Assembly: GCA_964532425.1 (NCBI GenBank)
Contig: CAZHIA010000004.1
Span: 19,740 to 83,739, forward strand
DNA from: an uncultured Candidatus Saccharibacteria bacterium
Lineage (GTDB): Bacteria; Patescibacteriota; Doudnabacteria; UBA920
Length of the DNA stretch: 64,000 bases
Reading direction: 5' to 3'
Positions 625 through 50,476 of the stretch are shown here, piece by piece. The notes beneath the pieces are model-generated. The model saw only the letters and a program-made list of their open reading frames with translations, had not been told where the DNA came from and did not search any database. The number at the start of each line of letters is the position of its first letter. Position 1 is the first letter of the stretch. The position numbers were made by a program, and so were the translations under genes.

Positions 625-2037
625 TTATTTCAGTTGAGTCGTGAAATAATTGATCAGATCTGCAATGGCTACGCGAGGTTGCTCCTTGGTATCTCGGTTG
701 CGGACGGTGACGGTCCCGTCTTCCAGGGACTGGAAGTCCACGGTAATGCAGAACGGCGTACCGATTTCGTCCTGGCTATAATAACGCTTCCCAACGTTCC
801 CTCTGTCATCCCAGGCAGTGGTAAAATGCGGCGTCAGGCTTGCGTAAACTTCTTTAGCTTTTTCGACAAGCTGCGGCTTGTTGGCCAGCAGCGGAAATAC
901 GGCAACTTTATACGGAGCCAATTTTGGAGGCAAGGACAAGAACACGCGATCTTCCTCTTCTCGGTACGAGTCGAGCAGTACCATAGCCATAAGGCGATTG
1001 ATTCCAACCGCGGGTTCAATCACGTGCGGGACGAATTTCTTATTAGTATGCGGATCGGTATACTGCAAATCTGCCCCGCTGTGCTGCATATGCTGCTTTA
1101 AATCGTAATCGGTCCGGTATGCAATACCCCACAATTCCTTGAAGCCGAACGGGAACAGATATTCCATGTCTTCGGTGCGCTTGCTGTAGAACGAGCGCTC
1201 TTCATCACCATGCTCTCTCCAGCGCAAATGGTCGGCTTTGACCCCAAGAATTTCCGTAACAAACTTCCACATGTCGTTCTTCCAGGTCTCGAACAGCTCT
1301 TCCCATTTTGTCGATTCGGGATCGAAGAAGTATTCAATCTCGGCCTGCTCGAACTCGAGCGTCCGGAAAATAAAGTTCCCTTTGGTAATCTCATTGCGGA
1401 AAGATTTGCCGGTCTGACCGACACCAAACGGCAACCGCACGCGGGTGGAATCCAAAATATTTTTGAAGGACAGGAAAATACCCTGCGCGGTTTCTCCACG
1501 CAGGTATACGAGAGACTGATTCTCCGGAACAATGCCCACATGAGTCTCAAACAGCAAATTAAATTTCCTCACCGGTGTCCAATCGAACTTACCGCAGGTC
1601 GGGCACTTGATCTTGTGTTCTTGAATGATGGCGTCGAGCTCAGCCTCGGTCTTGCCTTCCACTTTCAAATCCGGCACCGCACCTTCAATGAGATGATCGG
1701 CCCGCGTGCGGGTGTGGCAGCTTTTGCATTCCACCATGGAGTCGGTCAAGCCGGCCACATGGCCGGAAGCCACCCAGGTTTTGGGATGCAGGATGATCGA
1801 AGAATCGAGTCCGACCATATCGGGCCGTGAGCGCACGAAAAATTGCCACCAGGCATCGGTGATATTCTTTTTCAATTCCACGCCGGCCGGACCGTATTCG
1901 TAGCTGTTCGCCATCCCGCCGTAAATTTCGCTGCCGGGAAAAACAAAACCGCGGCGCTTGCAGAGACTGACAATCTTTTCCATCTTGTCCGACGTAGCTT
2001 TAGCGAAGTCAGATAACTGTTCGTTTTGTTCGGCCAT
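625..2037 (-). CDS. glyQS: Glycyl-tRNA synthetase, alpha2 (GlyQS) type, class II aaRS
   Basis: Strong match to dimeric GlyRS, e.g. CKRRGFVFPGSEIYGGMANSYEYGPAGVELKKNI and FRNEI motifs, with a C-terminal anticodon-binding region. The track start (GTG at 2100) lies inside a palindromic repeat. The ATG at 2037 (MAEQNEQ...) is preferred because the conserved N-terminus begins just downstream (MEKIVSLCKRRGF). Confidence 0.88.
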   Translation of the reverse strand: MAEQNEQLSDFAKATSDKMEKIVSLCKRRGFVFPGSEIYGGMANSYEYGPAGVELKKNITDAWWQFFVRSRPDMVGLDSSIILHPKTWVASGHVAGLTDSMVECKSCHTRTRADHLIEGAVPDLKVEGKTEAELDAIIQEHKIKCPTCGKFDWTPVRKFNLLFETHVGIVPENQSLVYLRGETAQGIFLSFKNILDSTRVRLPFGVGQTGKSFRNEITKGNFIFRTLEFEQAEIEYFFDPESTKWEELFETWKNDMWKFVTEILGVKADHLRWREHGDEERSFYSKRTEDMEYLFPFGFKELWGIAYRTDYDLKQHMQHSGADLQYTDPHTNKKFVPHVIEPAVGINRLMAMVLLDSYREEEDRVFLSLPPKLAPYKVAVFPLLANKPQLVEKAKEVYASLTPHFTTAWDDRGNVGKRYYSQDEIGTPFCITVDFQSLEDGTVTVRNRDTKEQPRVAIADLINYFTTQLK

Positions 2038-2055: not shown

Positions 2056-2105
2056 GTAGCGTGCCGATTCATCGGCTGACTTAAGCCCATAAATGGGCAC
2101 GCTAC
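2056..2105. repeat. Family-A palindromic repeat copy (GTAGCGTGCC-GATTCATCGGC ... GCCCATAAATGGGCACGCTAC) in the glyQS 5' leader
   Basis: Near-perfect 50-bp inverted repeat. Related copies at 13760-13817 and 50420-50476. Confidence 0.7.
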
Positions 2106-2321: not shown

Positions 2322-3506
2322 TTATTGATCTTTCAACAAAACCGTATAATCCCGGTACGTTTTGACCATCTCATCGAAGTTCTCGTACTGGATGGCTGTG
2401 CGGATCTTCTGCATCAAGTTCAGATAGAACTTCAAGTTGTGCATAGTAGCCAGGCGGATAGCCAGCGGTTCGCCGGTGGCAAACAGGTGGCGCAAATAGG
2501 ATTTGGAATGGTTCAGGCACAAGTAGCAGTCGCAACCGTTGTCGACTGTCGTAAAGTCTTCACGGTATTTCTCAAGCCTGATGTCGATAGTCTGATAGCC
2601 TTCGACTGTCCCATCGTTCGTTTCTATATTCCGTGCGGTGATGTAAAGCCGGCCATGCCGCGCCTCGCGCGTCGGGATGACGCAGTCAAACGTATCGCAG
2701 CCGCGCGCCGCCCCTTGGACAATATCAAACGGCGTGCCCACGCCAAGCAAATGTTTGGGTGCGGTTTCCGGCAAGAAAGGGATACAGTACTCAATAGCTT
2801 TCATCATCTCTTCGTGCGGTTCTCCTACTGCCACGCCGCCAATAGCAAAACCCTCAAAGCCAAAGTTGACCATGTCCTCGGCTGACTTTTTGCGCAGATC
2901 AGGGAAAGATGCACCTTGCACGATCCCCCACAGCTTTTGCCCCGGATTGACCGGGTCTCCGTCAATCATAATCTTCTGGTGCTCGCGAATAGCACGCTCG
3001 GCCCAGCGGTTGGTCTGCTCAATGGATTGCTTGCTGCGGCCATGTTCGAACGGGAAGCCGGGGAAGTCATCCAATATCAAAGCGATATCGCTGCCGAGGT
3101 TGGCCTGGATGTCCACGGATTTTTCCGGACTCAAAATTTCCTGCCGCCCGTCCAGATCGAACTGGAACAGCACCCCGGCTTCCATGACCTTGCGCATCTT
3201 GGAAAGTGAAAAAACCTGGAACCCGCCGCTGTCGGTAAAAATAGGACCTTTCCAGTTCATGAACTTATGGAGCCCGCCCGCTTTGTAAATGAGTGCATCC
3301 CCCGGCCGCTGCCATAAATGATAGGTATTAGCCAGCACCATCTGAGCGCCCCAAAACTTCAGTTCTTCGGTCGTAACTGATTTAATGGCACCTTTGGTAC
3401 CGATCGGCAAAAACATCGGCGTCAAGACATCGCCGTGCGCGGTGTGCAGCACGCCATTACGCGCACTGCTGCCTGCATCTTTTTTGAGAATTTCGAAGTA
3501 AGACAT
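2322..3506 (-). CDS. tgt: Queuine tRNA-ribosyltransferase (tRNA-guanine transglycosylase)
   Basis: Canonical Tgt sequence (LPIGTKGAIK, FTDSGGFQVFSL, GIVQGASFPDLR, CDCYLC zinc site). Start reassigned to the ATG at 3506 (MSYFEILKK...); the longer track ORF to 3722 is a non-conserved upstream extension. Confidence 0.92.
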   Translation of the reverse strand: MSYFEILKKDAGSSARNGVLHTAHGDVLTPMFLPIGTKGAIKSVTTEELKFWGAQMVLANTYHLWQRPGDALIYKAGGLHKFMNWKGPIFTDSGGFQVFSLSKMRKVMEAGVLFQFDLDGRQEILSPEKSVDIQANLGSDIALILDDFPGFPFEHGRSKQSIEQTNRWAERAIREHQKIMIDGDPVNPGQKLWGIVQGASFPDLRKKSAEDMVNFGFEGFAIGGVAVGEPHEEMMKAIEYCIPFLPETAPKHLLGVGTPFDIVQGAARGCDTFDCVIPTREARHGRLYITARNIETNDGTVEGYQTIDIRLEKYREDFTTVDNGCDCYLCLNHSKSYLRHLFATGEPLAIRLATMHNLKFYLNLMQKIRTAIQYENFDEMVKTYRDYTVLLKDQ

Positions 3507-3586
3507 TAGCCATAGTATACTAAATTTTCGCCATTTTGAAAATTGTATATGATATAGTACAATACCAAAAACCACCAGGAGGGTTT

Positions 3587-3784
3587 GTGAGCACTGAACT
3601 TGTAATCGAAATTGAGCAGGACACAGACGGCCGCTGGATCGGCGAAGTAATATCCATGCCCGGAGTGATGGTCTATGGTGCCAGTCCGGAGGATGCGCGG
3701 GCCCGTGCTGCAAAGCTCGCACAACAGGTCATCCAAGATCGGGAAGAAACTGCTTCTCCCTACGATCGCCCGGAATTCGAATAA
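3587..3784 (+). CDS. UPF0150/HicB-like small protein (type II antitoxin-like fold)
   Basis: Motif GRWIGEVISMPGVMVYGASPEDARARA is typical of the HicB/UPF0150 family. GTG start with a strong AGGAGG 7 nt upstream; the ATG at 3536 (track) lacks an RBS. Confidence 0.55.
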   Translation: MSTELVIEIEQDTDGRWIGEVISMPGVMVYGASPEDARARAAKLAQQVIQDREETASPYDRPEFE

Positions 3785-4608: not shown

Positions 4609-4697
4609 ATTAAATTACGGCAGGCCACGGGCCTGCACTACAACTCGCTGATGGTGTGATAAATGTAGTGCAGGCCCGCGGCCTGCTGCTTTAATGG
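4609..4697. repeat. Family-B palindromic element (two inverted copies of the hairpin unit GTAGTGCAGGCCnnnGGCCTGC)
   Basis: GCAGGCCACGGGCCTGCACTACA ...22 nt... TGTAGTGCAGGCCCGCGGCCTGC, with flanking CATTAAATTA / TTTAATG inverted. A related copy is at 30322-30400. Confidence 0.7.
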
Positions 4698-5476: not shown

Positions 5477-5550
5477 GTTTTCCTCCTGAAAAGATGGGTT
5501 TTGAAAACTAACCCATAATTATAGCATTTTTTAACATTTTTGTCAATATT

Positions 5551-5579
5551 AAAATCCCTAGTATTTACTAGGGATTTTA
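5551..5579 (-). terminator. Intrinsic terminator downstream of the 5595-6569 gene
   Basis: AAATCCCTAGTATTTACTAGGGATTTT perfect hairpin with a T-tract. Confidence 0.7.
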
Positions 5580-5594
5580 TAAAATATGCCTTAT

Positions 5595-6569
5595 TTACAT
5601 TACCCGCGTATGAGCGGAGTTGCCGTGCGCCATATGGGTGGGAAGCGAATCAAATTCTTCAAGAATCATTTTCAGCTCCTGAATCGGTGGGGTGCTATCT
5701 ATTTCTTCCAAAGTGTGCCCGGTCTGAACAGATTCCTGGAGCAGTGCGTCTATTTGGTTTCTCGCATAGGTAAAATATTCAGAAATTCCACGACCATCCC
5801 TCGTTCGGGTGTTTCGCGAGGCCGCATACTGTTGGAATTTTTCCAATTGCAAAGAAATCTGGCGAAGTATAATTTTTTTCATCAGACCGTTCTGGGTCAC
5901 CTTGCCCTGCTGCCAACCCCGGACCATCACTTGTGCCGCTTCTCGGTTCATCATAATCACAACACGGGGCAAATGATGAAGCCATCCCTGGTAGTCTCCC
6001 CTCTTGGAGCGGAAGTATTTGACTGAACCGAGCCTGCCGGCATCCAAATCATTCTTGATGCGGCTAAATTTATAGCTCGGGTCCTGGTTGTAGGTAATGT
6101 CAGTAGCAAGTCCCATGTGTTTGGTCGCGCCGGACTGCTCTTCAAATTCAAGGATTGAATCTACGCCGTTTTCGAAATCATCATAATCGGTCGTCATGTA
6201 CATGGTCGCGGATTCGCCGAACCACTTCAGCTCGTTCGAACAATCATACAGTGCCACTTCAAGCGTCTTGGCCAATTTTTGCAATTCCGGATCCTTCCGT
6301 TCTTCGCGATCACGCGAGCTCTGCGTGGCTTTTTTTAATTCGATATGTTCCTTATCTTCTTCAATTTGCCGTTGGTTGGAACGTCCGTTCGGCTCCACAT
6401 GAATAAAACTATCCAGGGTGGGTTTTTCCCGGTCCGCAATGGCCATGGCTCTTTCGTAAGCGGCGGCTTCAAGACTTAACGGCACATGTTCGGACTTTGG
6501 CTCCGGCACGTCCCGCGGTGGTTGAGCGGGAGCTTTGTAATTGGTATAACGTCGTGGTTGTGGATGCAT
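5595..6569 (-). CDS. Hypothetical protein, 324 aa
   Basis: Long ORF with its own terminator; charged and acidic regions; no motif recognised. Confidence 0.55.
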   Translation of the reverse strand: MHPQPRRYTNYKAPAQPPRDVPEPKSEHVPLSLEAAAYERAMAIADREKPTLDSFIHVEPNGRSNQRQIEEDKEHIELKKATQSSRDREERKDPELQKLAKTLEVALYDCSNELKWFGESATMYMTTDYDDFENGVDSILEFEEQSGATKHMGLATDITYNQDPSYKFSRIKNDLDAGRLGSVKYFRSKRGDYQGWLHHLPRVVIMMNREAAQVMVRGWQQGKVTQNGLMKKIILRQISLQLEKFQQYAASRNTRTRDGRGISEYFTYARNQIDALLQESVQTGHTLEEIDSTPPIQELKMILEEFDSLPTHMAHGNSAHTRVM

Positions 6570-9216: not shown

Positions 9217-9320
9217 TTGACAAAATTTAAAAAATTGAACAAAATTGACAAAATTATTCAAACCAGCCTGCAATTTATTTTTGTCAATTTTGTCATTTTT
9301 GTCATTTTTGTCAATATTAC
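9217..9320. promoter_or_regulatory. Iteron-like array: about 3 forward and about 4 reverse copies of TTGACAAAAT in the pnp upstream region
   Basis: AATTGACAAAATTT..AAAATTGACAAAATTA.. then TTTTGTCAATTTTGTCATTTTTGTCATTTTTGTCAA. Each unit contains a TTGACA (-35-like) hexamer. A similar TGTCA triplet array lies upstream of the xer gene (11965-11995). Confidence 0.5.
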
Positions 9321-10879: not shown

Positions 10880-11692
10880 TCAAAAGGCGCTTTTGGCACT
10901 GACAATGTATTGAATAAAATCCTTCGCTACATTATATCCCGTCAGTTGCTCGAAGGACTGAAATCCCGGCCAGCGGTTAATCTCCACTATATAAAACTTA
11001 CCGCCGGACTCTAAAATATCCACTTTAGCCAGCTCGCGACAGGTCGCCCGGGCTGCGGATTCCGCGATCTGTACCAGTTCCGGCAGCTCCGCGGAAGATA
11101 TCGTCTGGGCGGTAGCAAAATTCGGGCGCCCCGTCTTAGGGTGAGGCGCAAATCGCAGCACGACCGGCAGACTTTTGTATCCGACCGTGATGACTTTATA
11201 CTCAAATTCCACTGGCACATATTGTTGGACCAACAGTTCTGAAGTTGGGTGCTTGTGCATAGCTTTCTGCAGGCCTGCATCATCCTTTACAAGAAACACG
11301 TCCCGACCCTTCATCCCAAAATCCCATTTTACAACATAGGGATATTTTAGAGAGGTCTGTCCCAACCGGAAGGTTTGCGGGACCGGAAGTCCGGCTATCA
11401 AAGCTTTAACCAATGGCCCAAACTTATCATGGTCCACATCTCCATCTACCATGGTGGCATCTACAACTTTTTTCCCGGCTTTAACGAATTGCCGGGCCAG
11501 GGCAGTGGCCTCGTCCAGGTAAGGGTAAGGAAAACGGATATAGAGGGCTTCATAGTCTGCTACATCGATAGGTAATACGTCTTGTACCATTTGCCGCATA
11601 GATGCGGTCTTGGCGGATATTCCCAAAGCTGCCGTTTCCTCGATTAAACGCTTGGTGGAGTATACGCCCTGTGGAGAAATAAGAAGAATCAT
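10880..11692 (-). CDS. ATP-grasp family ligase (RimK / glutathione-synthetase-like)
   Basis: C-terminal FYIVEINRWPGFQ and upstream pre-ATP-grasp pattern typical of RimK-like ATP-grasp enzymes. Confidence 0.6.
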   Translation of the reverse strand: MILLISPQGVYSTKRLIEETAALGISAKTASMRQMVQDVLPIDVADYEALYIRFPYPYLDEATALARQFVKAGKKVVDATMVDGDVDHDKFGPLVKALIAGLPVPQTFRLGQTSLKYPYVVKWDFGMKGRDVFLVKDDAGLQKAMHKHPTSELLVQQYVPVEFEYKVITVGYKSLPVVLRFAPHPKTGRPNFATAQTISSAELPELVQIAESAARATCRELAKVDILESGGKFYIVEINRWPGFQSFEQLTGYNVAKDFIQYIVSAKSAF

Positions 11693-11900: not shown

Positions 11901-12002
11901 AAAATCCATTTAAAAGATTGAGCATGATTTAAACGATTTAAAAGAATATGGACCCATGTTCTTTTAAATTTTGTCATTCATGTCAATCTTGTCAACAATA
12001 AT

Positions 12003-13043
12003 ATGCTTCGAAACAAAAACACCGCCAAACAACCACCATTGAGCGAAAATAAAAAAACCCGCCCCCTCACCCCATTACAGCGTTATATTATTGAATTTCT
12101 TGAATATTGTGAGATCGGCAAAAACCAAAGCCGGCGGACCGTGGCCAATTACCACCACTACCTGGGACGCTTTGACGGTTTTGCCGAAATGCAGGGCGTC
12201 CACAAGCCTGACCAGATCACCCTGGAATTGGTCCGGAAATACCGGCTCTATTTGAACCGTTTCGAAGAACGGGACGGCCAGCCTTTAAAGCTCATTACCC
12301 AAAACTACCATCTGATCGCGCTACGGGCATTTCTGAAATATCTGACGAAGCAGGATGTTCAAACTCTGGCTCCCGAAAAAATAGAGCTGCCAAAGAATCC
12401 TATGCGCCAAGTCGAATTCCTGGAAGAAGAAGAGCTCCAGCGGCTCATTGACGCCACGGACAAAGAACCGAGCGAATTGCTCCGGGTGCGCGATCGCGCG
12501 GTAATGGAAACGCTGTTCTCGACCGGTTTGCGCGTTTCCGAGCTGTGTAGCCTGCGCCGCGACAACATTAACTTGGACCGCGGCGAATTTACCGTGCGCG
12601 GCAAAGGTAGCAAGTTGAGGGTCGTTTTCTTGTCTGATGAGGCAACGGCTGCCATCAAACAGTACCTGGCTAAACGGCCGGATAACAACAAGGCCTTGTT
12701 CGTCGGTCATTCGACCATTGGCAACTCGATCGAGATGGAAATAGAATCCCAAGGGTTCAAGTCTGGCAAAAGCGAACCAGTAGCCGAAATACAGGGGCTC
12801 ACGCCGCGCAGCGTGCAGCGCATTATAAAAAAATACTGCCGGATTGCCGGCATTGTGAAAAAAGTTTCGCCGCACACGCTGCGGCATTCATTCGCGACCG
12901 ATCTCTTGCAAAACGGCGCGGATATCCGTTCGGTCCAGACCATGCTGGGACATGCCAGCATTACCACGACGCAAATTTATACGCATATTACCAACCAGGG
13001 ATTACGTGAGATACACAGGAAATTTCATAATAAAAAAGAATGA
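12003..13043 (+). CDS. Tyrosine site-specific recombinase, XerC/XerD family
   Basis: C-terminal catalytic region HTLRHSFATDLLQNGADIRSVQTMLGHASITTTQIYTH (R..H..R..Y pattern); N-terminal SAM-like core-binding domain. Confidence 0.85.
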   Translation: MLRNKNTAKQPPLSENKKTRPLTPLQRYIIEFLEYCEIGKNQSRRTVANYHHYLGRFDGFAEMQGVHKPDQITLELVRKYRLYLNRFEERDGQPLKLITQNYHLIALRAFLKYLTKQDVQTLAPEKIELPKNPMRQVEFLEEEELQRLIDATDKEPSELLRVRDRAVMETLFSTGLRVSELCSLRRDNINLDRGEFTVRGKGSKLRVVFLSDEATAAIKQYLAKRPDNNKALFVGHSTIGNSIEMEIESQGFKSGKSEPVAEIQGLTPRSVQRIIKKYCRIAGIVKKVSPHTLRHSFATDLLQNGADIRSVQTMLGHASITTTQIYTHITNQGLREIHRKFHNKKE

Positions 13044-13242: not shown

Positions 13243-13419
13243 CTAGATATACCAGCGAAGTTCGCTCATGCTTCGCATGGCTTCTTCCATGTCGACCTGA
13301 TACTCGCGCTCGGTCTCTTTTGTGTACTCGGTGAGCGGTGTCTGGCAATACGGGCAAACGCCTAGTTTTTCCCGGCTAAAGCCGCATCCGTCACACATGT
13401 ACATATGGAAGTTTTTCAT
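13243..13419 (-). CDS. Small zinc-ribbon protein (58 aa; CxxC..CxxC), absent from the ORF track
   Basis: MKNFHMYMCDGCGFSREKLGVCPYCQTPLTEY...; GGAGGTG RBS 7 nt upstream of the ATG; terminated by the 13155 terminator. Confidence 0.6.
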   Translation of the reverse strand: MKNFHMYMCDGCGFSREKLGVCPYCQTPLTEYTKETEREYQVDMEEAMRSMSELRWYI

Positions 13420-13726
13420 ATTTGATCACCTCCCTTATGGGAGCCGTCGTTTCCGGCGCCATACCGGAAGCACACGGCATTATTTGGTGATTACACGCTG
13501 GGTGTTTGCTGAAAACTCCTTTCGTTTTTTGTGTGATACCTGTGTCGTGTACAGGCCTTTCTACTTACGGTGTATTCCCGAAAAAATGTTCTGTCAAGAT
13601 CGTTTTTTTGCTAATAAAGTGGATAACTCAAATTCAACTTGTCTTTATACGATATTTTGAGCATGCGGTTTGTCTAAACGGTTTGGAATACGAATGAGAG
13701 AAATGATAACCGACTAGAACATGAAA

Positions 13727-13861
13727 CCTGAATCAAAAAACTAACCTGCTTATTTGAGTGTAGCGTGCCCATTTATGGGCCGAGAAGGCTTAAGTGGCCG
13801 ATAAATCGGCACGCTGCAAAACCTATGAAATCTCTAACATTTCCGAGTTTTTTGATTCAGG
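13727..13861. repeat. MITE-like element: 16-bp perfect terminal inverted repeats (CCTGAATCAAAAAACT / AGTTTTTTGATTCAGG) enclosing a family-A palindrome
   Basis: The core GTAGCGTGCCCATTTATGGGC..GGCCGATAAATCGGCACGCTGC (13760-13817) is nearly identical to the glyQS-leader repeat. Confidence 0.7.
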
Positions 13862-13966
13862 TCATGAACTATTGACAAAAGTATTTTGATGTGCTATAAT
13901 AATTGGATTTTCCTTAGATTTCTCAGTAATTTTCAGCAACTCAGCACATTACACAGGAGGTGTAAT

Positions 13967-14227
13967 ATGAACGGAAACGATAGCAGCACGCTCGAAGCCC
14001 GACCTACCCACCGGGAGGTCGTCGCCTTCTTTTGTCCGAAAGAGCCGGGGTACCGGTTCAGAACAAAAGAGGGTCTGGAATTTCAGGTAGAAAAAAAGCT
14101 GACACCGGCGGAAGCAAAGCAAGCCGACAGGCAGCTATATGATCAAATTGAGCGCAACTTCCGGAGCGTCGACATGTTATACTGGTTGGAATGCCAGCTG
14201 GTCAATCCCAACCAGAACCCTCAGTAA
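13967..14227 (+). CDS. Hypothetical protein, 86 aa
   Basis: AGGAGG RBS before the ATG at 13967; the track ORF from 13886 is an upstream extension. Confidence 0.5.
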   Translation: MNGNDSSTLEARPTHREVVAFFCPKEPGYRFRTKEGLEFQVEKKLTPAEAKQADRQLYDQIERNFRSVDMLYWLECQLVNPNQNPQ

Positions 14228-14324
14228 TGTCTGACGCGCGGCCTTCTTGGCGCGGCATCAACGATGCCGCGCCTTTCTCTTTTCATAACAGCCGATATTT
14301 GTTAGAATGTACATGGTCTCATAT

Positions 14325-14402
14325 GACCCCGTAGCTCAGTTGGATTAGAGCGAGAGCCTTCTAAGCTCTAGGTCGCAGGTTCGATCCCTGCCGGGGTCAC
14401 CA
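14325..14402 (+). tRNA. tRNA-Arg (anticodon TCT)
   Basis: Cloverleaf GACCCCG/CGGGGTC acceptor, anticodon loop CTTCTAA, T-loop TTCGATC, encoded CCA. Confidence 0.88.
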
Positions 14403-14530
14403 CGTACCAGTCGCGAACCGTTTAGGTTCGAGAATGGTACGTGCCGTGTACCCGAGTCAATTTATTGACGAGTGGTTCACGGCTTACATGGTTCGCTCCG
14501 GTACGTGGCGCAGCCATATCTCCGAATTTT

Positions 14531-14561
14531 AAATACCGCCACCGAAAGGTGGCGGTATTTT
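14531..14561. terminator. Bidirectional intrinsic terminator
   Basis: AAATACCGCCACCGAAAGGTGGCGGTATTTT. Confidence 0.75.
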
Positions 14562-14564
14562 CAT

Positions 14565-15737
14565 TTACTGCTGCGGGGAGGTATCTGGGTATAACAGTAG
14601 ATCCTGATCGCTGACAAAGGTAATATTGGTTTGAGTCGGGCTGACCCTGGCTAGAACGGTAGCATTCGGTATAGCGCTCTTGCGGCCGCTATTCGTAACA
14701 AGATAGACGGTTTCTCCGCTGCCGCGGATTAAGCTTCCGTCAGGCGCGGTCATGTACATTGGACTGATCGATTGGCTGTTCAGTTGACTCTGAGAGATCA
14801 TTTGGATTTGAGACCACTGATAGCCGCGAGCCAAAAAGATCTGCGCGGAAGTAAATGGCACGAGGACATTATTCCGAACCAGATAGACCGTCGGGTTGCC
14901 GCCAACCTGCACCAGCGAGCCGCTTATAAGCGGTGACGTCGAAGCAGTTGATCCTGGTATTGTGCCGGTCCCCGTACCTGGACTGGTAATCGTGAACGGC
15001 AGTGAATTGCTGGTACCGCTGGCAGCTGCCAAAGAAACCTGGTAGGTACCCGGGGTCAGCAAAGCTGCAAAATACGGACACGCTCCGGTACTCCATGGCG
15101 CACATGGGTTGATACTGCTTGGGATCGCAAATTGCAACACTGTTCCGGCAGTCGCTGAACTGACCGCTCCGCTAATATAACCAGGTCCAAACTGGACCGA
15201 GGTGCTCGACGAGAACCCGGAACCGCTAACCGTTACCACCGTACCCACCGGCCCTGAAGTTGGCGTGAGGCTGATGATAGAAAGTGCGGTCGAAGTCGCC
15301 CCGGCTGCCTGCGGTCCGGTCAGCGTGAATGGGCTGCTCGTGGCAAGCACTGAACCGGAACTTGCGTTGGCGAATGTCAGCGTATATTGCCCGGCCGGCA
15401 CAGTCCCACTGCCAGCCGTACTGCCGGCCATCCAGGTATAAATGCCGTTATTAGGGACGCTGGTTGCAACCGTATACACAGTCGTTGTCGCTGCCGGGCA
15501 GTTGGTGGCGCAGTACGGTACCAGAGACAGGCTCAGCAGCGTACTCGAAGAAGAAGTCGGGCTGTACCAGATAAAACTTTGACTGCTGCCCAAGTTCCAC
15601 TGTTCGCCTCCGCCCGGAGTGAGTATTTGCAAAACAGGCGCTGTGGTCGTTTGCGCCATTGCAAGACTATGGCCCCATAGCCAAGACGCGCCCACCAAGC
15701 CTATGGCGGCAAGGACAAATAAAACTTTTATTTTCAT
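14565..15737 (-). CDS. Secreted Ser/Thr-rich protein with an IPT/TIG-like domain and a C-terminal triple repeat shared with the 32445 protein
   Basis: Signal peptide MKIKVLFVLAAIGLVGA; IPT/TIG-like SIISLTPTSGPVGTVVTVSGSGF; C-terminal repeats GNPTVYLVRNNVLVPFTSAQIFLARGY / GETVYLVTNSGRKSAIPNATVLARV. Confidence 0.65.
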   Translation of the reverse strand: MKIKVLFVLAAIGLVGASWLWGHSLAMAQTTTAPVLQILTPGGGEQWNLGSSQSFIWYSPTSSSSTLLSLSLVPYCATNCPAATTTVYTVATSVPNNGIYTWMAGSTAGSGTVPAGQYTLTFANASSGSVLATSSPFTLTGPQAAGATSTALSIISLTPTSGPVGTVVTVSGSGFSSSTSVQFGPGYISGAVSSATAGTVLQFAIPSSINPCAPWSTGACPYFAALLTPGTYQVSLAAASGTSNSLPFTITSPGTGTGTIPGSTASTSPLISGSLVQVGGNPTVYLVRNNVLVPFTSAQIFLARGYQWSQIQMISQSQLNSQSISPMYMTAPDGSLIRGSGETVYLVTNSGRKSAIPNATVLARVSPTQTNITFVSDQDLLLYPDTSPQQ

Positions 15738-15865
15738 ATAGTTCGCACTATGGCGGTTAATGAATAGCTACCTGAATTGACGCATGAATATGGCAAGTAT
15801 TACTTATCAAAAAACTTTCATACTCTGTAGTATGAAAGTTTTTTGATCATATATATGAAAACCTT

Positions 15866-16471
15866 TTAAACTACCGGCTGGCTCCAGTCACCGCTGTTAT
15901 GGCGGTTACGCCCGTTGGTGTGCCAATCATGGACATTGGTTTCCATAATTTCCGTGAACAGCTTTTTGCCCGATTCAGTATAAAAGCGCGGCAGCACGTT
16001 ATCCTCACGCATGGGATGCAGTTCTTTTTCCAACGCAATACCATTGGCGGCCTGTTCATGCAGCTCCAAATCCACATCCAGCGTGTCCGCGTCTTTGACA
16101 ATCCTAGCTTCTTTGGACTCGCGCTTTTCGTATTCTTCCCAGATCTCCATCATTTCATCCTGCACTGAGGTGCCCTTAAGCATGTCTTCAATAGCCAGCC
16201 GTTCGTTGCGCGTAGTGTAGAGGCGCGACACATAATGCACGTCGCCGGTGCGACTTTCGGTAATGTCATGGATCAAGGCCATTTTAGCGATCTTGCCGGT
16301 ATCCAAATCCCCGCCCTCCATTTTAGCCAGTACGAGCGCTATCCAGGTCAAACGAAAAGTATGTTCGGCCACGTTGGCAAAATTCGTGCCGAGCATCTGC
16401 TTCCACGTCCGGGCTATGTTCCGAATACAGCCCATCTCGTATAAAAATTCAAAGTCGCGCTGTATGCTCAT
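15866..16471 (-). CDS. HD-domain phosphohydrolase (YfbR-like 5'-deoxynucleotidase family)
   Basis: H...HD...D metal-binding pattern: AEHTFRL, ALIHDITESRTGD, KDADTLD. Confidence 0.75.
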   Translation of the reverse strand: MSIQRDFEFLYEMGCIRNIARTWKQMLGTNFANVAEHTFRLTWIALVLAKMEGGDLDTGKIAKMALIHDITESRTGDVHYVSRLYTTRNERLAIEDMLKGTSVQDEMMEIWEEYEKRESKEARIVKDADTLDVDLELHEQAANGIALEKELHPMREDNVLPRFYTESGKKLFTEIMETNVHDWHTNGRNRHNSGDWSQPVV

Positions 16472-16648
16472 ACGGGATAAAATAATTATCTGAGCTCATC
16501 ATATACTATGACGATTCTTCGTTCAAATGCACATACCGGGCCAATAATGCATCAGCAATGTAGGGAACGGTCTAGACCGTTCCCTACGGAAACAAACAAC
16601 CTGCCAAAGCGTAGCCTATTTCATGCCATAAAAAAATCCCACCCTTTC

Positions 16649-16725
16649 TGGTGATCGCGGCAGGAGTCGAACCTGCGACCTTCAGCTCCGCAAGCTGACG
16701 CTCTATCCAACTGAGCTACGCGACC
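16649..16725 (-). tRNA. tRNA-Arg (anticodon GCG)
   Basis: Reverse complement GGTCGCGTAGCTCAGTTGGATAGAGCGTCAGCTTGCGGAGCTGAAGGTCGCAGGTTCGACTCCTGCCGCGATCACCA. Anticodon loop TTGCGGA with U33 and G37, encoded CCA. Confidence 0.8.
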
Positions 16726-16982
16726 ACAAGAAAAAATAGGAATTTTGGTACAGCTTTTGTATTTTAGCATAAACCAGTAGCTTTTTCAAGCCTTTTTCGG
16801 TATACTAAAACATAAGGACTTACGCGCTTGACCAAGTACGAGACAAAACGCGAGGATTGGCCGAGGCGTAGTCCACTACGGTGAGGCCGACCGGAGCGTT
16901 TTAACGAAGTAATTGGTCAAGCCCCTTGCGGGTTTCGCCCTGCATTTTGTGCCGGGCGAAACGCATAAGTCCTATCAAAATT

Positions 16983-30321: not shown

Positions 30322-30400
30322 ACGTCGTTCTGAGCCGTAGTGCAGGCCCTTGGCCTGCCCAGATGCTCGGATATTTGAGCAGGGCACGGCCCTGCACTAC
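30322..30400. repeat. Family-B palindromic element copy 2 (inverted pair of GTAGTGCAGGCCnnnGGCCTGC hairpins) with a family-C-like left arm
   Basis: GACGTCGTTCTGAGCCGTAGTGCAGGCCCTTGGCCTGC ... GCAGGGCACGGCCCTGCACTAC. The left flank resembles GGCGTCATCCTGAGCCGTGAGTGCA of the ABC-gene element. Confidence 0.65.
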
Positions 30401-40510: not shown

Positions 40511-40593
40511 CGCTCGCATTCTCAGCCAAACCTTCTCAAGGTTTGGCTGTTTTTAATACGTTACTGATCTATCAAAATCAAATGTTCCTTCCA

Positions 40594-40629
40594 TTCTACA
40601 AATTACTGCATATGCAGTAATTTGTAGAA
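40594..40629. terminator. Perfect 36-bp palindrome TTCTACAAATTACTGCATATGCAGTAATTTGTAGAA
   Basis: Perfect inverted repeat; a variant with the same ACTGCATATGCAGT core lies at 41813-41848. Confidence 0.55.
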
Positions 40630-40748
40630 TACAATATTTGGATATCAATAATTGCCAACTACTTCGCAGTACAAGATGAGATACATCGCGGACACGAGAA
40701 CTCATTTCTGCTATAATTGAGGCGTAAATTCAAAAGTACCCATCCAAT

Positions 40749-41750
40749 ATGGAAAACAAGCCACTGCTGCAAACTGAGATCAGCGACCCTCTTAACATCC
40801 TCAGCTCTACCAAACAGGTAGCGGATAGTTTCCAATTTGTTTCGATCAATGAAGAGTCTTTGGAGAATTTGTCTCAAGAGATTATCAAGCGCTTTGGCCA
40901 GGGGCTCAGTAACCAGGAATTGGGTTTTACCGTTTCGGGGGACTTGGAACGGGACCTGCAAACCATATTCGTGGAAGACGCAGTGAATTTCTGTTTTTGG
41001 GCAAGCAAAGGGCAGTCCAAGTGGCAAATAGAACTGCCGGATGGCGGCAAAACGGAAGGCGGTTGGTTTGGGCTGCAAGCCTGCTTTGAACGAGCACTTT
41101 TAGAACACGTGCCAATCTTTGAGGCTGACCATCTGGCGCAATTGAATAGGACTGATGCCGAACATTTTTTCCGAGGTGTAGGCGGTGTGACGATTCCCCT
41201 ACTGGACGAACGCATAAATAATCTGCGCGAGACTGGGAAAATCCTGTTAGAAAAATTTGATGGACAATTTTCAAATGTTGTGCAGACTGCTAATGGTGAC
41301 GCCATAGAATTAGTTAAGATCATAGCCAAAAATTTTCCCTCTTTCCGTGATGTTTCGCAGTTTGATGGTATTGAAGTTAGTTTCCTCAAGCGGGCACAGA
41401 TCTGCGCCAATGATACTATACGCATCCTGAAAGACCATCATCAAAATATGGCAGGGCTAGAATTACTCACTGCCTTTGCCGACTACAAGCTCCCTCAAAT
41501 CTTGCGCATGTTCGGGGTATTGCAATACGAACCATCTCTTGCGAAGCGGATAGATATTTATGAGGAGATTCCGCACGACAGCCGTGAGGAAATCGAAATC
41601 CGGGCTGCTACTATTTGGGCGGTCGAACTACTGAGACAACGGACCCCTCACCTGACTGCCAGTGACATCGACAACACCCTCTGGCTGTTAAGCCAGGACA
41701 TCCAAAATGAAGCCAAACCATACCACCGGACAAGAACGATCTATTATTAG
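40749..41750 (+). CDS. DUF2419-like protein (putative queuosine salvage / Qng1-like)
   Basis: FCFW motif and C-terminal RTRTIYY resemble the DUF2419/Qng1 family; tgt is also present in the window. Confidence 0.5.
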   Translation: MENKPLLQTEISDPLNILSSTKQVADSFQFVSINEESLENLSQEIIKRFGQGLSNQELGFTVSGDLERDLQTIFVEDAVNFCFWASKGQSKWQIELPDGGKTEGGWFGLQACFERALLEHVPIFEADHLAQLNRTDAEHFFRGVGGVTIPLLDERINNLRETGKILLEKFDGQFSNVVQTANGDAIELVKIIAKNFPSFRDVSQFDGIEVSFLKRAQICANDTIRILKDHHQNMAGLELLTAFADYKLPQILRMFGVLQYEPSLAKRIDIYEEIPHDSREEIEIRAATIWAVELLRQRTPHLTASDIDNTLWLLSQDIQNEAKPYHRTRTIYY

Positions 41751-41812
41751 AGCGCTTTCCTGCTGCAAACTTTCCAACTTTACTTGGAACCTATAGCAAA
41801 CTCATGACCTTA

Positions 41813-41848
41813 TTCAACAAAAAACTGCATATGCAGTTTTTTGTTGAA
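41813..41848. terminator. Perfect 36-bp palindrome TTCAACAAAAAACTGCATATGCAGTTTTTTGTTGAA (bidirectional terminator-like)
   Basis: A-tract, stem, T-tract; between convergent genes. Confidence 0.6.
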
Positions 41849-41855
41849 TAACTAA

Positions 41856-50419: not shown

Positions 50420-50476
50420 GGCCGATAAATCGGCACGCTACATTATTTATAAAAAGAATCGGCACACTACACGATC
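50420..50476. repeat. Family-A repeat copy 3 (GGCCGATAAATCGGCACGCTAC ... CGGCACACTACACGATC)
   Basis: Matches half-sites of the repeats at 2056-2105 and 13760-13817. Confidence 0.6.

Follow-up and report, generated by a model that had tools for sequence, protein, structure and literature searches.

In this work, we have analysed a 64-kb stretch of DNA (the window, whose numbering is used for every coordinate given without a locus name) together with fetched contigs and loci of the same or related organisms, which are referred to by L-numbers (L001, L043 and so on). Our subject is a non-coding element of 137 bp at 13726-13862. Our results show that its centre is almost certainly a REPIN, a REP doublet forming hairpins, made of two inverted, GTAG-headed hairpin units of the repetitive extragenic palindromic (REP) kind. 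The family that recurs is thus a REP/REPIN system with a REP-associated tyrosine transposase (RAYT), whose gene is flanked by such units in relatives, and not a classical family of miniature inverted-repeat transposable elements (MITEs), for which the initial annotation of this DNA had taken it. Around the core stands a pair of perfect terminal inverted repeats (TIRs), and the element as a whole is probably a REPIN core inside a transposed MITE-like shell.

The perfect inverted ends, ACCTGAATCAAAAAACT, are 17 bp long (13726-13742, plus strand, and 13846-13862, minus strand) and occur nowhere else in the window with up to three mismatches allowed. The initial annotation had described perfect TIRs of 16 bp on an element of 135 bp; the perfect repeats stand and the lengths do not. 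It had also suggested looking for target-site duplications, and the hexamer CATGAA, seen by reading the sequence and by an automated comparison of the flanks (6 nt), abuts both arms. The palindromic core that it had described resolves into two inverted 21-nt hairpin units. From left to right, the parts are:

13720-13725, no strand: left flanking direct repeat CATGAA, a candidate 6-bp target-site duplication (direct reading and flank comparison)
13726-13742, plus strand: left TIR ACCTGAATCAAAAAACT, 17 bp (exact match; the right arm is its sole other occurrence)
13743-13759, no strand: 17-nt left linker, without complementarity to the right linker or similarity elsewhere, and unpaired in the fold
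13760-13780, plus strand: REP unit of P type, GTAGCGTGCCCATTTATGGGC (exact pattern match; the 21-mer was found 61 times in the fetched Patescibacteria loci)
13781-13796, no strand: REPIN spacer or loop, 16 nt (sequence reading)
13797-13817, minus strand: REP unit of Q type, GCAGCGTGCCGATTTATCGGC, with the head GCAG replacing GTAG (one-mismatch match; the Q-type 21-mer was found 65 times in related loci)
13818-13845, no strand: right linker, 28 nt (sequence reading and linker comparison)
13846-13862, minus strand: right TIR, AGTTTTTTGATTCAGGT on the plus strand (present as well in L001, an independent Logan contig with 100% identity to the window)
13863-13868, no strand: right flanking direct repeat CATGAA (sequence reading and flank comparison)

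Folded as single-stranded DNA, the 149-nt region reaches -35.1 kcal/mol (z = -8.1); its central stem consists of the two units, and the arms close the fold. The linker sequences have no match elsewhere. Perfect inverted repeats of at least 14 nt with a spacer of 20-250 nt lie at four loci in the window, and any at all appeared in 4 of 100 composition-preserving shuffles; on these shuffles, together with the counts of units against expectation given below, a chance origin was rejected. An artefact of assembly fold-back is excluded as well, since the linkers are not mirror images of each other and the right half is confirmed in an independent assembly. Independent Logan contigs from SRR11567520 and SRR11567528 agree with the window at 100% identity and break at 13552/13553 and at 13785/13786, the second break falling within the REPIN spacer; no contig was recovered over 13553-13785.

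The identification of the core rests on the recurrence of its units. The pattern GTAGCGTGCCSATTNATSGGC has five matches in the window against 0.02 expected, at 2056-2076 (+), 2085-2105 (-), 13760-13780 (+), 13797-13817 (-) and 50421-50441 (-); the head is GTAG in four of these units and GCAG in one, and each stem has 5-6 bp. The matches fall at three sites, all of them intergenic, and the two outside the element are:

2056-2105: bare REPIN without outer inverted ends in the tgt-glyS spacer (Q unit 2056-2076, plus strand; 8-nt spacer; P unit 2085-2105, minus strand)
50421-50470: single Q unit at 50421-50441 and a shortened direct copy, AATCGGCACACTAC, at 50457-50470 (unit pattern match and sequence reading)

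The first of these is the core copy without outer TIRs that the initial annotation had placed 20 nt upstream of a probable glyQS start. The copy is there, at a distance of 18 nt upstream of the ATG (2037, minus strand) and 5 nt before a GGGGA ribosome-binding site, and the gene concerned, 625-2037 (-), is that of glycine-tRNA ligase (NF003211, 619 bits against a cut-off of 312), with tgt at 2322-3722 (-). As RNA, this doublet would form a hairpin of -37.7 kcal/mol (z = -7.2), and its flanks share nothing with the linkers of the 13726-13862 element. At the second site, which has a metallopeptidase-like gene on one side and a Cache/HAMP sensor kinase gene (start 50399) on the other, a third variant had been noted at 50420-50476; a copy is indeed present, though as one unit with a shortened direct copy and not as a full doublet.

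A scan for the unit pattern over one genome per species returned at least 115 stretches, almost all from metagenome-assembled genomes (MAGs) of Patescibacteria labelled Doudnabacteria, Kerfeldbacteria and, in some cases, Saccharibacteria or Daviesbacteria. Among the matches listed, 151 of 162 exact instances are the same three 21-mers as in the window, and one related MAG carries at least 47 units within the 158 kb fetched from it, so that the dispersed repeat family proposed from three copies is supported for the core by its sites in the window and by these related genomes. The units are of two types, P, GCCCATTTATGGGC (GCCCAT..ATGGGC), and Q, GCCGATTYATCGGC (GCCGAT..ATCGGC), and 56 of the 57 heads-out doublets counted in the window and the related loci join a P to a Q unit, with spacers that in the relatives are mostly of 10-11 nt (range 8-52 nt). 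What distinguishes the two types is a compensatory pair, G11/C18 against C11/G18, and each type therefore keeps its own hairpin. Units with broken hairpin complementarity are singletons, several of them in unrelated genomes; the exact matches in Sedimenticola, Massilia and Pseudidiomarina, whose hairpins are non-complementary, were rejected as chance. The whole of IMG/VR yielded one unit match, so the motif is clade-specific and not a common word.

Our screen for open reading frames (ORFs) bracketed by inverted family units found an ORF of 137 aa in L059, L089 and L091, and tblastn added RAYT genes in L065 and L082 as well as two more distant ones. The gene has units on both sides, with their heads outward, in L059, L091, L089 and L065, while the 5΄-truncated gene of L082 has the unit on the one side present; L249, L250 and L251 also carry the gene with flanking units. 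The protein scores 35 bits against PF01797 (Y1_Tnp; gathering score 23), among NCBIfam models that of the REP-associated tyrosine transposase fits best, at 73 bits, slightly under the equivalog cut-off of 80, and the sole PDB match is the E. coli TnpA-REP (4ER8, E = 4e-8), in an alignment that includes the HUH histidines and the C-terminal tyrosine region. A profile search returned at least 120 clusters at 56% identity or more, and several homologues bear the names 'REP element-mobilizing transposase RayT' (JGI) or 'transposase [Candidatus Doudnabacteria bacterium]' (NCBI). The order purC-RAYT-purB is found in five genomes (L059 1333-1743, L091 6244-6654, L249 2096-2509, L250 415-828 and L251 10001-10414), and this shared position suggests that the RAYT is single-copy and inherited vertically. 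The window's own genome presumably carries such a gene, whose product would be active and, by analogy with TnpA-REP (PMC3479197), may cut and move the doublets on single-stranded DNA.

Some details around these genes deserve mention in their own right. The end of purC in L251 is overlapped by a REP unit through its GTAG head, whose TAG is the purC stop codon. Upstream of the RAYT gene of L065, 10 or more REP units are clustered (2427-3417), among them three tandem P units with a 46-nt period and similar spacers, a tandem duplication and not a CRISPR array. The two distant RAYTs (L058 and L105; 38% identity) are flanked by other GTAG palindromes, GTAGGGG.... The window itself has a second family of GTAG-headed palindromes, GTAGTGCAGGCCCGYGGCCTGC, at 4620-4641 (-)/4665-4686 (+) and 30337-30358 (+)/30379-30400 (-), once heads-in and once heads-out, with one weak match in the fetched loci.

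The REPIN has been gained or lost between relatives. Presence or absence of the core, which the initial annotation had suggested comparing among relatives, differs at two orthologous sites: the RimK-like gene holds a doublet in frame (CSVPIYGPSGKPINRHAT) in L015, L043 and L066 and none in the window (gene 10880-11692), and the tgt-glyS spacer holds one in the window and none in L043. Instead of a REPIN of this family, the spacer of L043, the closest relative (6440-6495), contains a different long palindrome, TGTTGCATCACAATGGGCACCATTGTG..., and this suggests that the tgt-glyS spacer repeatedly acquires hairpin repeats. In the relatives, 51 of 222 units (~23%) lie at least 60 nt inside ORFs of at least 200 aa. 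The doublet is in frame within long ORFs at L015 525-576, L043 1158-1209 and L066 2523-2574, and further in-frame loci are found in L012, L013, L020, L021, L027, L041, L048, L050, L076 and L083; each adds about 18 residues, for example CSVPIYGxxxxPINRHAT or RSVPIYGRPKDADKSARY. By our reading of the sequences, made without confirmation from family libraries, the genes concerned resemble those for RimK, LeuRS (two sites), ArgRS, AtpG (the ATP synthase gamma subunit), UvrC, MnmA and dihydroorotase (two sites). Repeats within genes are known from the Rickettsia palindromic elements (RPEs) and from some REPs (PMC3733652). Like the RPEs, the REPINs of the relatives sit in frame in housekeeping genes with some 18 residues added; they differ in that the three window copies are all intergenic and that a RAYT is associated here, whereas the RPEs have no identified transposase.

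The likeness to the REP/REPIN-RAYT systems of Escherichia coli and Pseudomonas, with their bacterial interspersed mosaic elements (Bertels and Rainey 2011, PMC3116915; 4ER8, PMC3479197), extends to several levels. In both, a GTAG head stands on an imperfect palindrome of 21 nt, two hairpin variants (P and Q here, Y and Z there) are paired as inverted doublets, and a dispersed family, here multicopy in the relatives, accompanies a single RAYT gene bracketed by its own units, in a fixed chromosomal position as expected from vertical inheritance (compare PMC5581495). There are also differences. The host belongs to the candidate phyla radiation (CPR), some 23% of the units in the relatives are inside long ORFs and not extragenic, the RAYT is short, at 137 aa, with its score just under the equivalog cut-off, and shells of TIRs and target-site duplications surround one copy in the window and at least seven in relatives.

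How would such a doublet come to lie within inverted ends? REPINs do not move autonomously: each unit folds to a hairpin on single-stranded DNA, and a RAYT, which is an IS200-like HUH/tyrosine transposase, recognises this hairpin and cuts it, so that the doublet can be copied elsewhere without target duplication. The perfect 17-bp TIRs on a short non-coding element and the abutting 6-bp direct repeat are hallmarks of a different kind, those of a MITE, and may be the footprint of staggered-cut (DDE-type) transposition. We propose that a DDE-type transposase, making staggered cuts of 6 bp, brought in the 137-bp unit, and that the REPIN copy most likely arrived as the cargo of the MITE-like element, which would have come to lie 9 nt ahead of the -35 box in a consensus promoter; the doublet could have been part of the shell at transposition or have been inserted into it earlier. 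Taken by itself, the claim that 13726-13862 is a transposed MITE-like shell is one towards which the balance tilts slightly. The element resembles the bacterial MITEs Correia/NEMIS, RUP, ERIC and MITEAba12 (PMC3733652, PMC6382973) in being a non-coding unit of 137 bp with 17-bp TIRs, a 6-bp repeat and an adjacent promoter; it departs from them in that no second copy or parent insertion sequence was found and that its interior is a complete REPIN of an HUH-type system, not degenerate insertion-sequence DNA.

The best support for the shell of the window comes from another shell, with other ends, that has the same REPIN at its centre in relatives. When the flanks of about 150 REP clusters were compared for inverted repeats, exactly two recurrent or long types emerged, the arms of the window, which rank second in length, and GTAACTATTCACC. 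The second type, which we call the GTAAC shell, has GTAACTATTCACC as its TIR, a length of 120-133 bp, 8-bp duplications and a central P+Q REPIN in fixed orientation, and is present in at least seven copies:

L007, 451-570
L008, 2868-2987 and 6438-6557
L037, 1033-1165 and 1174-1305 (in tandem)
L055, 1628-1748
L069, 883-1003
L024, ~5504-5603: a probable further copy

The 8-bp repeats are perfect in six of the seven copies and agree at 7 of 8 positions in L007, and they differ at each independent site (TTTTATTT, AGTAGGAG, ATCCTTTT, which is shared by the two tandem L037 copies, TATTGCTA and AACCCGAC). The seven copies, oriented by their P unit, align end to end, linkers included. From this alignment and from duplications that change between independent sites, we conclude that the GTAAC-shell element, REPIN included, has been transposed as one unit by a mechanism that makes 8-bp duplications; no empty site for any copy was found among the fetched loci. 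Its start, GTAA, and its 8-bp duplication recall IS66, whose inverted repeats start with GTAAGCG and whose direct repeats are of 8 bp (PMC11946415), but these are the sole points of agreement and IS66 as the parent of this shell is a lead only. In plan, the shells of L007, L008, L037, L055 and L069 are like that of the window: TIR, linker of ~18 nt, P+Q REPIN, linker of ~25 nt, TIR and flanking direct repeats. However, the ends of the window element are unrelated to GTAACTATTCACC, its direct repeat is of 6 and not 8 bp, the linkers cannot be aligned, and it is the GTAAC shell that is demonstrably multicopy; with no alignment outside the REPIN, homology between the two shells was rejected.

Several results weigh against a REPIN core in a transposed shell. 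No RAYT is encoded in the 64-kb window, and the RAYT of the relatives stays under its equivalog cut-off. No second ACCTGAATCAAAAAACT shell was found in the window (up to three mismatches) or in 115 related loci totalling 0.85 Mb (up to two mismatches), and neither an insertion sequence with ACCTGAATCAAAAAACT ends (none in the window) nor an allele with an empty site was found; the outer ends are single-copy in everything searched, and the 'Family-A MITE' of the initial annotation is not demonstrated. In the search for an empty site, the Logan contigs recovered for the element locus come from the same organism only and are 100% identical, and the zinc-ribbon protein encoded to the left of the element had no database record. 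The downstream gene is an orphan, and there is consequently no orthologous locus for an empty-site comparison. A metagenome scan with the 17-mer arm gave at least 120 single matches extending by 2-9 nt (19-26 nt of similarity), none of them paired or near a REP among the matches listed, and after BLAST extension these were rejected as shell copies and taken for chance matches; the viral scan with the arm gave nine single matches, also by chance, and both arm scans are uninformative. Lastly, the inner 9-11 nt of the arm, ATCAAAAAACT, are also present in two compact terminator-like palindromes of the window, so that the arms could derive from a resident palindrome.

This last point opens an alternative that we regard as unlikely, though less so than the others: the arms could be the two halves of a resident, genome-specific, AT-rich and terminator-like palindrome (A6, stem, T6) into whose centre the REPIN, with or without other DNA, was inserted, so that the whole unit never moved and CATGAA is a coincidence. 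The motif CAAAAAACT occurs eight times in the window against 1.1 expected, and six of the eight occurrences form three palindromes, namely the arms, 15806-15847 (perfect, with 19-bp arms and a 4-nt loop, and 11 nt in common with the element arm) and 41810-41851 (perfect, 42 nt, with 21-bp arms), palindromes of a sort nearly absent from 0.87 Mb of relatives. In the IS200/IS605 mechanism, HUH transposases insert into single-stranded DNA, and a hairpin loop supplies it. Against this, the interior would need 45 nt of non-palindromic linker besides the REPIN, when the other two palindromes have loops of 0-4 nt, and these linkers are not part of the REPIN unit, because the flanks of the bare doublet at 2056-2105 have nothing in common with them. 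A 6/6 direct repeat abutting the arms has a chance of about 1 in 4096, which for a single case does not fully remove coincidence; the genes on the two sides of the site start divergently, so that a terminator would not be expected there, and CAAAAAACT stands in a different register within the three arms. The element also failed as an intrinsic bidirectional terminator, for the T6 of the right arm begins 30 nt past the REPIN stem and the terminator scan reports none. As regards the palindromes themselves, 15806-15847 and 41810-41851 are AT-rich, share CAAAAAACT/AGTTTTTTG with the element arms and look like bidirectional terminators of the A-tract/T-tract type; ACCTGAAT is also found at 15770.

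Transposition of a shell with its REPIN must also be set against a DNA switch. The element lies within a spacer of 548 nt with two divergent small genes on either side: to the left, a zinc-ribbon-like ORF of 58 aa (13243-13419, minus strand), 71% identical to an ORF of L066; to the right, an ORF of 86 aa (13967-14227, plus strand), which among 5.8 billion proteins has no homologue except itself. The right arm stops 9 nt ahead of a 12/12 promoter match, TTGACA-17-TATAAT, at 13872-13900. Since perfect 17-bp inverted repeats enclose a segment of ~100 bp directly upstream of a gene, with a XerC/XerD-like tyrosine recombinase gene (12003-13043) 700 bp upstream of the element, the repeats might bound an inverton that this recombinase flips to control the 86-aa gene. 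We consider this very improbable. The 13872-13900 promoter, the only strong match, is outside the right arm and would not be shifted by inversion, and the interior is a near-symmetric hairpin. The recombinase is probably a housekeeping Xer, the RimK-Xer synteny being kept in relatives without the element. Moreover, the Logan contigs end at 13552 and 13786, whereas mixed orientations would have made them end where the repeats do, and invertons do not carry flanking direct repeats.

The remaining alternative, which takes the core for a conserved structured RNA (small RNA or cis-regulatory leader, for instance of glyS), could draw on the stable RNA hairpin at 2056-2105, on the compensatory pair of P and Q and on the position of one copy just 5΄ of the glyS ribosome-binding site, but it is the least credible of all, since Rfam gave no family for either REPIN, at the gathering threshold or at E <= 1, the copies are found in both orientations and in places as diverse as the space between divergent genes, the inside of ORFs (in frame) and the flanks of a transposase gene, and the types are two discrete hairpins without graded covariation. 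A glyS regulatory leader was rejected on the absence of an Rfam match and of the repeat from the orthologous spacer of L043; conservation as RNA, which the initial annotation had named as what would speak against mobile copies, is not upheld.

What is the role of this copy in its host? The copy at 13726-13862 is probably without a dedicated host function, and as far as the window alone goes the element is probably neutral. Its hairpin of -35 kcal/mol could block read-through into the downstream orphan gene, and it may affect the neighbouring promoter.

Our current, tentative hypothesis for the clade as a whole is that Doudnabacteria-like CPR bacteria carry a REPIN-RAYT system whose REPIN may have been captured at least twice independently in MITE shells with TIRs and target-site duplications (the GTAAC family and the ACCTGAATC shell) and may also be colonising essential genes in frame. 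If this is true, a hairpin repeat moved by an HUH enzyme gains a second, DDE-type route of spread, and no REPIN population would have been described from the CPR before this one, nor any REPIN with dual mobility; the literature searched holds no REPIN nested in a MITE bounded by target-site duplications and no RAYT or REPIN tied to Patescibacteria. REPIN-RAYT systems serve as a model of replicators that live for long inside bacterial genomes and are passed on vertically, and to our knowledge they have been studied almost only in Proteobacteria. The CPR system widens this host range to streamlined genomes of ~1 Mb. Many MAGs have the 21-nt units in identical form, the RAYT keeps its place between purC and purB, and the setting is a compact one in which the persistence of such populations can be tested. 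The TIR and target-site-duplication shells suggest that REPINs can also hitch-hike on cut-and-paste elements, and the frequent in-frame insertions into genes of the tRNA synthetase, ATP synthase and repair kinds in relatives can break CPR MAG assemblies and mislead gene calls and alignments.

With regard to the host, the proteins of the window (G+C 50%) are 60-80% identical to, and syntenic with, those of contigs labelled Candidatus Doudnabacteria, and share with them the gene order glyS, tgt, polynucleotide phosphorylase (PNPase), S15, RimK-like and Xer (L043, L015 and also L066). By this synteny and identity, the window is assigned to a Doudnabacteria-like member of Patescibacteria (CPR). 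As L066 is syntenic with this Doudnabacteria-like window, the label 'Saccharibacteria' on some third-party annotation MAGs seems doubtful, and conservation of the family across classes is therefore not claimed.

The region around the element varies between relatives. The interval from the Xer-like gene to tRNA-Arg(gcg) spans 13420-16730 in the window and 2546-2944 in L015. In the window it holds the zinc-ribbon ORF, the element, the orphan 86-aa ORF, an ORF of 390 aa and an HD-domain gene. Beyond the 86-aa ORF lies tRNA-Arg(tct), at 14325-14402; L015 has its two tRNA-Arg genes side by side on one strand, and in the window tRNA-Arg(tct) is inverted.

Other repeats of the window belong to different groups. 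The perfect palindromes at 40593-40631 (38 nt) and 41810-41851 (42 nt) have a common centre, ACTGCATATGCAGT, and bracket an ORF of 333 aa (40749-41750) with no NCBIfam match. Arrays of the motif TTGACAAAA/TTTTGTCA, with 9-nt spacing and in both orientations, are found in the intergenic regions 9230-9320, 5510-5563 and 11959-12003, of which one precedes the PNPase gene and another the Xer-like gene.

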